In this document: piece after piece, positions 11,698 to 11,967 of the stretch
How positions within the stretch are numbered: position 1 is the stretch's first letter
How the letters are laid out: each line of letters starts with the position of its first letter
IMG/VR virus record: IMGVR_UViG_2718218305_000006
From: a virus
Taxonomy: Duplodnaviria > Heunggongvirae > Uroviricota > Caudoviricetes
Reading direction: 5' to 3' (one strand)
Length of the DNA stretch: 64,000 bases
Translations under genes and position numbers: made by a program
The notes under the pieces: generated by a model
The model's database searches: none
What the model saw: the letters and a program-made list of their open reading frames with translations, nothing else
Told to the model about the DNA's origin: nothing

Positions 11698-11967
11698 ATG
11701 AACATATTAAAAAAAATTATGCAGCGTCTGTGCGGTTGCGGAAAGCATGATGACCGTGAAAACGGGGAGTTACTTACAGCACAGCTGCGACTGGGACCGG
11801 CAGACATTCTGGAGTCCGATGAGAATGGTATTATCCCGGAGCAGGACAGGGTAATCACGCAGGTGGTGATACTGGATGCGGATAAAAAGCAGATACAGTG
11901 CGTGGTAAGACCGCTGCAAATCCTGCGTGCTGACGGGACGTGGGAAAATATTGGCGGGATGAAATAG
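11698..11967 (+). CDS. Small protein paralogous to the C-terminal domain of the upstream tail fibre
   Basis: 89 aa; RBS aggag; [21 protein letters not shown]… parallels fibre C-terminus RFRLGPASIIETNSNGWFPDTD…; conserved copy at 61505-61774. Confidence 0.6.
   Translation: MNILKKIMQRLCGCGKHDDRENGELLTAQLRLGPADILESDENGIIPEQDRVITQVVILDADKKQIQCVVRPLQILRADGTWENIGGMK

Follow-up and report, generated by a model that had tools for sequence, protein, structure and literature searches.

A stand-alone relative of the distal knob encoded directly after the collagen-like side tail fibre gene of lambdoid prophages

Small proteins that are encoded downstream of a fibre gene and expressed late together with it are known from several phages, among them Tfa of lambda, in which the gene order is J-lom-stf-tfa, U of Mu, G of P2, the Caudo_TAP family, and gp38 and gp57A of T4. 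Proteins of this kind can also serve as a tip or adaptor on the fibre, as gp38 does in phage S16 and Tfa in Mu. Alternative fibre C-termini are supplied by the invertible G/C segments of Mu and P1 and by the template repeats of DGR systems such as that of Bordetella phage BPP-1, in which a second copy of the 3'-terminal module of the fibre gene lies just downstream of the first, as it does at the locus described here. The fibre of this locus is of the EPclA type, which is built from PfN, a coiled coil, a collagen triple helix and PfC (Ghosh et al. 2012, PMC3368898). [quoted passage not shown] Recombinant EPclA, a Col-PfC fragment and isolated PfC were all found to be trimers, and the EPclA protein was produced without the small ORF that is our subject (PMC3368898).

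That small ORF stands immediately downstream of the fibre gene and encodes an 89-aa protein; in other phages the same gene is known as Sp5 ORF68 (ECs1229), 933W L0122, VT2-Sakai H0138, the 'gp59' ORF of phi24B and gp24 of phage 434. All of these encode 89 aa with a PfC part that is 92-100% identical, and all stand directly after a collagen-like fibre gene with the same junction between the two. The settings differ, given that Sp5 and phi24B are short-tailed phages in which the gene comes after an EPclB fibre and is followed by further late genes, whereas the prophages studied here are long-tailed and lambdoid and have the gene next to an EPclA fibre, at the edge of an effector locus. Overall the gene is found in 296 phage records, chiefly of Stx-converting phages. 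RefSeq/PGAP calls its product "phage tail fiber C-terminal domain-containing protein" (WP_001023362.1) and the preceding fibre "prophage tail fiber N-terminal domain-containing protein". The classical laboratory phage 434 has it in the same place, with the side tail fibre gene before it and the terminator behind it, and there it is named "tail fiber assembly chaperone", a name that was apparently assigned by position. The homology of Sp5 ORF68 to the fibre C-terminus was already noted by Mondal et al. 2016, who list nine Sp5 ORFs as essential, the fibre ORF67 among them, and ORF68 as non-essential, as tested on K-12 under laboratory conditions (PMC5155283). Thus, the relation between the small ORF and the fibre knob is itself known, from the databases and from two papers, and what is added here is evidence from evolution that the small ORF functions as a gene.

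The small ORF and its relation to the fibre knob

The window, a stretch of 64,000 nucleotides taken from an IMG/VR virus record, carries the fibre gene and the small ORF in each of two prophages (Table 1). Many E. coli O157:H7 strains carry its region 10300-12100 in their chromosomes at 100% identity, and related sequence is present in 4,801 of 5,426 complete E. coli genomes, at up to 18 places per genome. PGAP annotates the genes of this part in the order tape measure … J (frameshifted), Ail/Lom, fibre N-terminal protein, small ORF, NleG-family gene, nleG7 and IS elements. The fibre gene, which in the ORF list starts at GTG 10377 as against the annotated ATG at 10383, encodes Pfam matches to PF08400 (230 bits), PF01391 and, at residues 365-428, PF06820. 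As for the tail genes upstream, J (tail tip) of prophage 1 (6131-9651) is split by a frameshift near 9433, while that of prophage 2 (55932-59459) is intact and encodes 1175 aa, and the L gene next to J in prophage 1 is marked as truncated by PGAP. Prophage 1 is defective, yet its fibre gene and small ORF are intact.

Table 1. Positions of the fibre/small-ORF module and neighbouring features in the window
Feature	Position	Strand	Details
Side tail fibre gene, EPclA type (PfN, coiled coil, collagen, PfC), 437 aa	10383..11696	+	Annotated ATG, PGAP WP_024183355.1
Fibre PfC domain, paralogue of the small ORF	11469..11660	+	PF06820 122.9 bits, residues 365-428
Coupling junction	11687..11700	+	AGGAG, fibre TGA 11694-11696, one base, ATG 11698
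Small ORF (89-aa stand-alone PfC protein, WP_001023362.1)	11698..11967	+	ATG 11698, TAG 11965-11967
Small ORF, N-terminal 27 residues, no fibre homology	11698..11778	+	Alignment; helix, CGCGKH motif, variable linker
Small ORF, PfC domain, residues 28-89	11779..11964	+	PF06820 123.2 bits, model 1-64
Intrinsic terminator, hairpin and U-run closing the fibre/small-ORF unit	11980..12010	+	Direct folding
End of conserved module (…TGTTTGTTATGA)	12011..12035	+	Prophages differ downstream; four-way alignment diverges here
First NleG-family effector gene after the module	12081..12656	+	PF06416 153 bits, PGAP CDS
Degenerate duplicate spanning the final ~100 nt of the small ORF, the terminator and the module end, in-frame TGA	12746..12911	+	Repeats D1-D3, 88-96% identity
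nleG7 effector gene	13367..14017	+	PF06416 162 bits, PGAP name
Fibre gene, second prophage	60190..61503	+	44 nt and 14 aa differ from first copy, 6 aa in PfC
Second copy of the 89-aa PfC protein	61505..61774	+	88/89 identical to first copy

The original prediction had taken the small ORF for a diverged duplicate of the fibre C-terminus that is conserved in both prophages, and this is borne out on both counts. By BLASTP, residues 29-88 of the small protein align with residues 366-427 of the fibre with 25/62 identities (40%), 63% positives and an E value of 3e-13, and both proteins match the full 64-position model of PF06820 (Phage_fiber_C), the small protein at 123.2 bits and the fibre at 122.9 bits, where the curated gathering threshold is 25 bits. 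The small protein also matches PHROG 576, an 89-position family of tail fibre proteins, over its full length (201 bits), and shares with the fibre PfC the invariant residues R31, I37, G44, I53, T54, L59, D60, L73, Q74, G80 and W82. [quoted passage not shown] The two copies in the window differ at 7 of 270 nt, of which five changes are synonymous, one affects the stop codon and one is non-synonymous (N22H).

The EPclA/EPclB fibre PfC (PF06820; Ghosh et al. 2012) therefore belongs to the same family as the small ORF, both matching the full model with equal score. In contrast to the fibre PfC, the small protein stands alone, with neither a collagen nor a PfN domain and not at the end of a long fibre shaft, and it evolves more slowly. 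It also has an N-terminal extension of 27 residues without a counterpart in the fibre, joined to the PfC domain by a linker; the extension contains two Cys, and a third, type-specific Cys68 lies within the PfC domain. AF2 predicts a helix for residues 3-12 of the extension, at low confidence, and a motif LCGCGKH is also found there. A signal peptide or lipoprotein reading of MNILKK…LCGCG was considered and rejected, as no hydrophobic core is seen on inspection. Codons 5-7 carry an A7/A8 run (11710-11717) that is a mutational hotspot, and copies from IMG/VR loci with shorter runs (A6, A4) are frameshifted or have lost one codon. The run is missing in the Sp5 and 434 type of the gene.

Other searches returned little beyond PF06820. 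A Pfam/NCBIfam search of the small protein at E values up to 0.1 gave nothing else, and there was no match in these collections to the chaperone families Tfa/Caudo_TAP, gp38 or gp57A. AF2 monomer models were of low confidence for both the small protein (pLDDT 61.5) and the fibre C-terminus (58.9), Foldseek found no match in the PDB at E <= 0.001 with the low-confidence model of the small protein as query, and no PDB chain matched the small protein by sequence. A profile search of 1.84 billion representative proteins gave 84 matches, fragments for the most part, suggesting that the PfC-type family is tiny and too small for a deep alignment. A 565-aa collagen-containing protein from a Logan assembly (P0142) has four tandem repeats that resemble the second half of the small-type PfC (…VVVLDADAKTATGQMGILQVRRADGTWMEIPALKG), which indicates that PfC-like units can repeat within a single chain.

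The junction between the two genes is compact, with an AGGAG ribosome-binding site (11687-11691) that sits within the final codons of the fibre gene and a gap of 1 nt, and its 25-nt upstream context is unchanged in 80 of 85 copies. This arrangement (AGGAG, TGA-C-ATG) indicates that translation of the small protein is coupled to that of the fibre on the same message. The unit is closed by a hairpin that a promoter/terminator scanner had overlooked and that direct folding detected; its fold energy is -20.3 kcal/mol (z -4.25), and none of 200 shuffles folds equally well. The hairpin is kept in other copies and in Salmonella, and it is an annotated terminator in phage 434.

The same junction could in principle be crossed by a programmed frameshift or by read-through, such that the ORF is translated as an extension of the fibre with two tandem knobs. 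The conserved ribosome-binding site and ATG that the small ORF has of its own argue against this, and we consider it very improbable. It is true that in most E. coli copies the frame of the small ORF extends upstream through 46 codons without a stop, and that the A7/A8 run is a candidate slippery site; the search database of the phi24B study included hypothetical fusions of this kind. However, this stretch does not stay open in every copy: it closes within 5-13 codons in 14 of 166, and in Salmonella after a single codon. The Sp5 and 434 type has no A-run, in-frame read-through of the fibre TGA halts after 17 codons, and no junction peptide occurs among the matches listed in the phi24B supplement. 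Mondal et al. likewise found no frameshift signal in Sp5 (PMC5155283). A programmed frameshift of the lambda G/GT type would require every member to have a conserved slippery site and an overlap that stays open, and was rejected given that neither is universal.

Selection on the small ORF and its persistence behind different fibres

Two sets of 80 IMG/VR prophage loci were compared, one picked by the small ORF, and as such biased with respect to it, the other picked by the fibre PfC and unbiased for the small ORF. In the unbiased set, an intact small ORF of 89 codons stands straight after the fibre gene in 71 of 78 evaluable loci; six of the others have a partial or trimmed small ORF and one has none. 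For 57 distinct sequences from this set, the pooled Nei-Gojobori pN/pS was 0.17 for the whole small ORF (pS 0.144), 0.07 for its PfC domain and 0.35 for residues 1-27, as opposed to 1.83 and 1.10 for the off-frame controls. The fibre's own PfC gave a pN/pS of 0.22-0.24, a value that was measured in the set picked by the small ORF. Common polymorphisms show the same tendency, with a ratio of synonymous to non-synonymous sites of 13:4 in the small PfC and 12:11 in the fibre C-terminus, as do the two window copies, between which the small ORF has five synonymous changes and one non-synonymous change while the fibre PfC has six amino-acid changes. Values of 0.07-0.17 against controls above 1, together with the polymorphism counts, indicate that the small ORF is read in its annotated frame, and the lower pN/pS and the counts also indicate that its PfC domain is more constrained than the fibre domain of which it is a copy. 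On this substitution pattern, the small ORF is under strong purifying selection, as expected of a functional gene.

These data bear directly on the view that the small ORF is a decaying and functionless relic of a displaced fibre 3' end, which is the least credible of all readings considered here. Its listing as non-essential in the laboratory for Sp5, the many truncated or chimeric database entries and the frameshifted copies that the homopolymer run yields would all agree with decay. A relic would not, however, show a pN/pS of 0.07-0.17 where off-frame controls exceed 1, and within the limits of the selection data this reading is refuted by them; nor is it easily reconciled with an intact ORF in 71 of 78 unbiased loci, with the peptides reported from phi24B, or with the divergence between E. 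coli and Salmonella.

For that divergence, a pair from Salmonella enterica is informative. In L165:110-974 (GCA_008387015.1), a 212-aa non-collagen protein ends in a PfC domain (59.5 bits) and is followed, with a 14-nt overlap, by a PfC-only ORF of 79 aa (P0125, one of the 84 matches of the profile search). Downstream there is the same type of terminator, then the TGTTTGTTATGA module end, then NleG-like and SopA-like effector genes. The Salmonella orthologue retains the N-terminal helix and the two Cys. Over 62 shared columns, the small proteins of E. coli and Salmonella are 63% identical, whereas the fibre knobs have dropped to 35%, and cross-comparisons between the two types give 27-40%. This indicates that the duplication of the knob is older than the split between E. 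coli and Salmonella, and that the free copy evolves more slowly than the knob on the fibre. Together with the arrangement of the genes, it also indicates that the pair of fibre knob and small ORF has been kept together behind different fibre bodies.

When the small ORF was compared with the fibre knob for covariation, linkage was almost absent (r2 0.02-0.07), so low that a slight excess at the non-synonymous sites of the N-terminal part (0.069) carries no meaning either way. It is worth noting that the strong conservation of the small protein would equally fit a conserved target that is unrelated to the fibre. In a scan of genome collections, the small ORF was found only in E. albertii and in one 725-bp contig assigned to 'Xanthomonas pisi' (L166, NZ_JPLE01000138.1). 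The copy on that contig is 93% identical, and the contig is almost certainly E. coli contamination of the assembly.

Occurrence in virions and candidate roles

The small protein has been detected in purified phi24B virions by two peptides of 13 and 12 residues with probabilities of 0.9996 and 1 and three spectra each, a total of six among the matches listed, where the fibre gp61 has ~2,270 and the capsid protein 20,213 spectra (bioRxiv 10.64898/2026.04.10.717836). Both peptides are exact substrings of the small protein of the window, and among the phi24B matches they map only to the small ORF (phi24B 39891-40295) or to the hypothetical fusions that the authors had placed in their database, with an entry "Spike or just gp59?" (bioRxiv 10.64898/2026.04.10.717836). 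Although spectral counts are a rough quantification only, six spectra against ~2,270 for the fibre indicate that the small protein is made but is present in trace amounts in purified virions. Thus, it is expressed in the lytic cycle and is at most a trace component of the virion.

This speaks against one of the two functions in the original prediction, namely an alternative distal tip. In the stoichiometric form of this reading, every fibre would keep a trimer of the small protein at its end as a tip or adaptor, and this trimer would be the true receptor-binding part. The position of the gene directly after the fibre gene, the co-purification with phi24B virions and the tandem PfC-like units of P0142, which make a stacking of knob on knob conceivable, would agree with such a role. 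However, set against the ~2,270 and 20,213 spectra listed for the fibre and the capsid protein, the six phi24B spectra put the small protein at no more than a few per cent of the fibre even when adjusted for length, and the gene is given as non-essential on K-12 in the Sp5 study. In addition, receptor-binding tips are usually variable, whereas the small protein is more conserved than the knob of the fibre. We therefore regard a stoichiometric tip as improbable; it is contradicted by the phi24B counts.

The other predicted function, that of a fibre assembly chaperone, is a putative one, and in its essential form it is contradicted. Like known chaperones, the small protein is encoded directly after the fibre and shares its terminator, in an arrangement found in 71 of 78 loci. 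Unlike Tfa, U, G, gp38 and gp57A, it has no sequence relationship to these families and is instead homologous to its presumed client. According to the Sp5 list, ORF68 is non-essential while the fibre ORF67 is essential (PMC5155283), so that, in contrast to those chaperones, the small protein is not required for infectivity as far as that study reports, and its client trimerises without it (PMC3368898). On the Sp5 results, the small ORF is needed neither for plaque formation nor for lysogenisation on K-12, and since the deletion of ORF68 has no reported change of titre, any role as a helper should be subtle or conditional. The weight of this dispensability depends on what makes the fibre essential. 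The phi24B preprint argues that the distal knob of the fibre does not bind BamA (bioRxiv 10.64898/2026.04.10.717836), and the essentiality of the Sp5 fibre may then stem from its N-terminal, tail-building part; if so, little can be concluded from the dispensable nature of ORF68 on K-12 as to what the knob does on natural hosts.

A further proposal was made for Sp5 ORF68 by Mondal et al., who described it as an "intragenomic reservoir" for fibre variation (PMC5155283). According to this proposal, the main reason for keeping the ORF is that it provides a spare C-terminal cassette, which deletion or recombination can attach to the fibre so as to alter its distal knob. Natural fusions show that the idea is physically possible. 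One (P0179) is a complete fibre of 343 aa, with PfN, coiled coil and a short collagen, fused to a small-type PfC, and a second, sequence-distinct in-frame fusion (P0063) adjoins a SopA-like gene. In both of these E. coli sequences (L162:4-291) an in-frame deletion joins the collagen end …GERGPA to the knob of the small ORF at DILESDENG…, thereby shortening the fibre, and P0121 is a chimera of the reciprocal type. Such fusions are nevertheless rare, amounting to one four-member cluster among 174 matches, and a junction probe detected none in the complete genomes that matched best, in a search that joins the halves of unfused loci into one place. Moreover, the cassette is near-invariant among phages and would offer one alternative rather than diversity, and the two knobs, at 40% identity in protein, are too distant for homologous exchange; a DNA repeat search found no repeat between fibre and small ORF. 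The small ORF shares with the Mu/P1 segments and the BPP-1 DGR its place just downstream of the fibre 3' end, but differs from both in having the same orientation as the fibre, only 40% protein identity, a start codon of its own and a product that has been detected. No invertase or reverse transcriptase is annotated near the small ORF in the window region or in phage 434. The conserved ATG and ribosome-binding site, the N-terminal extension, the pN/pS of 0.07 and the peptides all indicate that a free protein is made and selected. Thus, we consider it unlikely that the ORF is kept as a reservoir; recombination of this kind is possible as a side effect, but leaves the selection on the free protein unexplained.

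Taken together, the small protein is real, translated, conserved and expressed late, it is tied to fibres that end in PfC, it is non-essential on K-12, and it is not stoichiometric in virions. How it acts is less certain. Our best reading, which we hold tentatively, is that of a separately translated late gene whose product, probably as a PfC trimer, would act on the fibre knob as a dispensable helper or cap. The small protein would fold into a small beta-rich homotrimer, as the PfC of the fibre does, and would act in the infected cell through recognition of PfC by PfC on the distal knob of the fibre. It may then serve as a non-essential helper or capping factor in the maturation or deployment of the fibre, while rare microhomology deletions may weld the small ORF onto the fibre as an alternative C-terminus. 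Both a transient, non-essential helper and a rarely recruited alternative C-terminus are possible on the data presented above.

The helper reading can be made more specific, although in this form it is a rather doubtful proposition. As a paralogue of the knob that acts in trans, the small protein could template or register the three nascent C-termini of the fibre, or cap finished knobs until release. Were this true, it would represent a class of chaperone that is unrelated to Tfa, gp38 and gp57A and is specific to collagen-like phage fibres, and any advantage would show only on natural hosts, or at temperatures close to the 42 C at which the collagen shaft melts.

The module end and the neighbouring effector genes

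Homology between the two prophages stops at 12035 and 61842, 68 nt beyond the stop codon of the small ORF and about 40 nt beyond the terminator. The original prediction that the small ORF marks the point after which effector cassettes are inserted is upheld for prophage 1, in which the homology ends at 12035 and an nleG gene follows. Effector loci are known to lie downstream of lambdoid tail fibre genes, and the boundary in prophage 1 fits this pattern. The first nleG cassette is followed by the degenerate duplicate at 12746-12911, after which there is further effector sequence, and fragments of the same type are found by tblastn in several IMG/VR loci. Such a scar suggests that effector cassettes have been added by recombination at the conserved sequence of the module end. 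Behind the scar, a short ORF (12941-13093) that resembles the N-terminus of NleG stops early and is apparently a truncated effector gene.

Downstream of the module in prophage 2, a DinI-like gene, an integrase fragment and a fragment of exonuclease VIII (RecE-like) lie on the minus strand (62141-63975) and probably belong to a neighbouring prophage remnant. In phage 434 (L163:5438-8648), NleB, NleC and NleH effector genes and fragments lie directly after the module of fibre, small ORF and terminator.

Collagen-like fibres are carried by the lambdoid and Stx phages through which Shiga toxin and type III effectors are disseminated, and the hosts of these phages include E. coli, E. albertii, Citrobacter rodentium and Salmonella. 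In this context, the module of fibre gene, small ORF and terminator forms a fixed edge beside which effector cassettes accumulate, and the role of the free knob that it encodes may be relevant to the host range of these phages and to the assembly of fibres with a collagen shaft.
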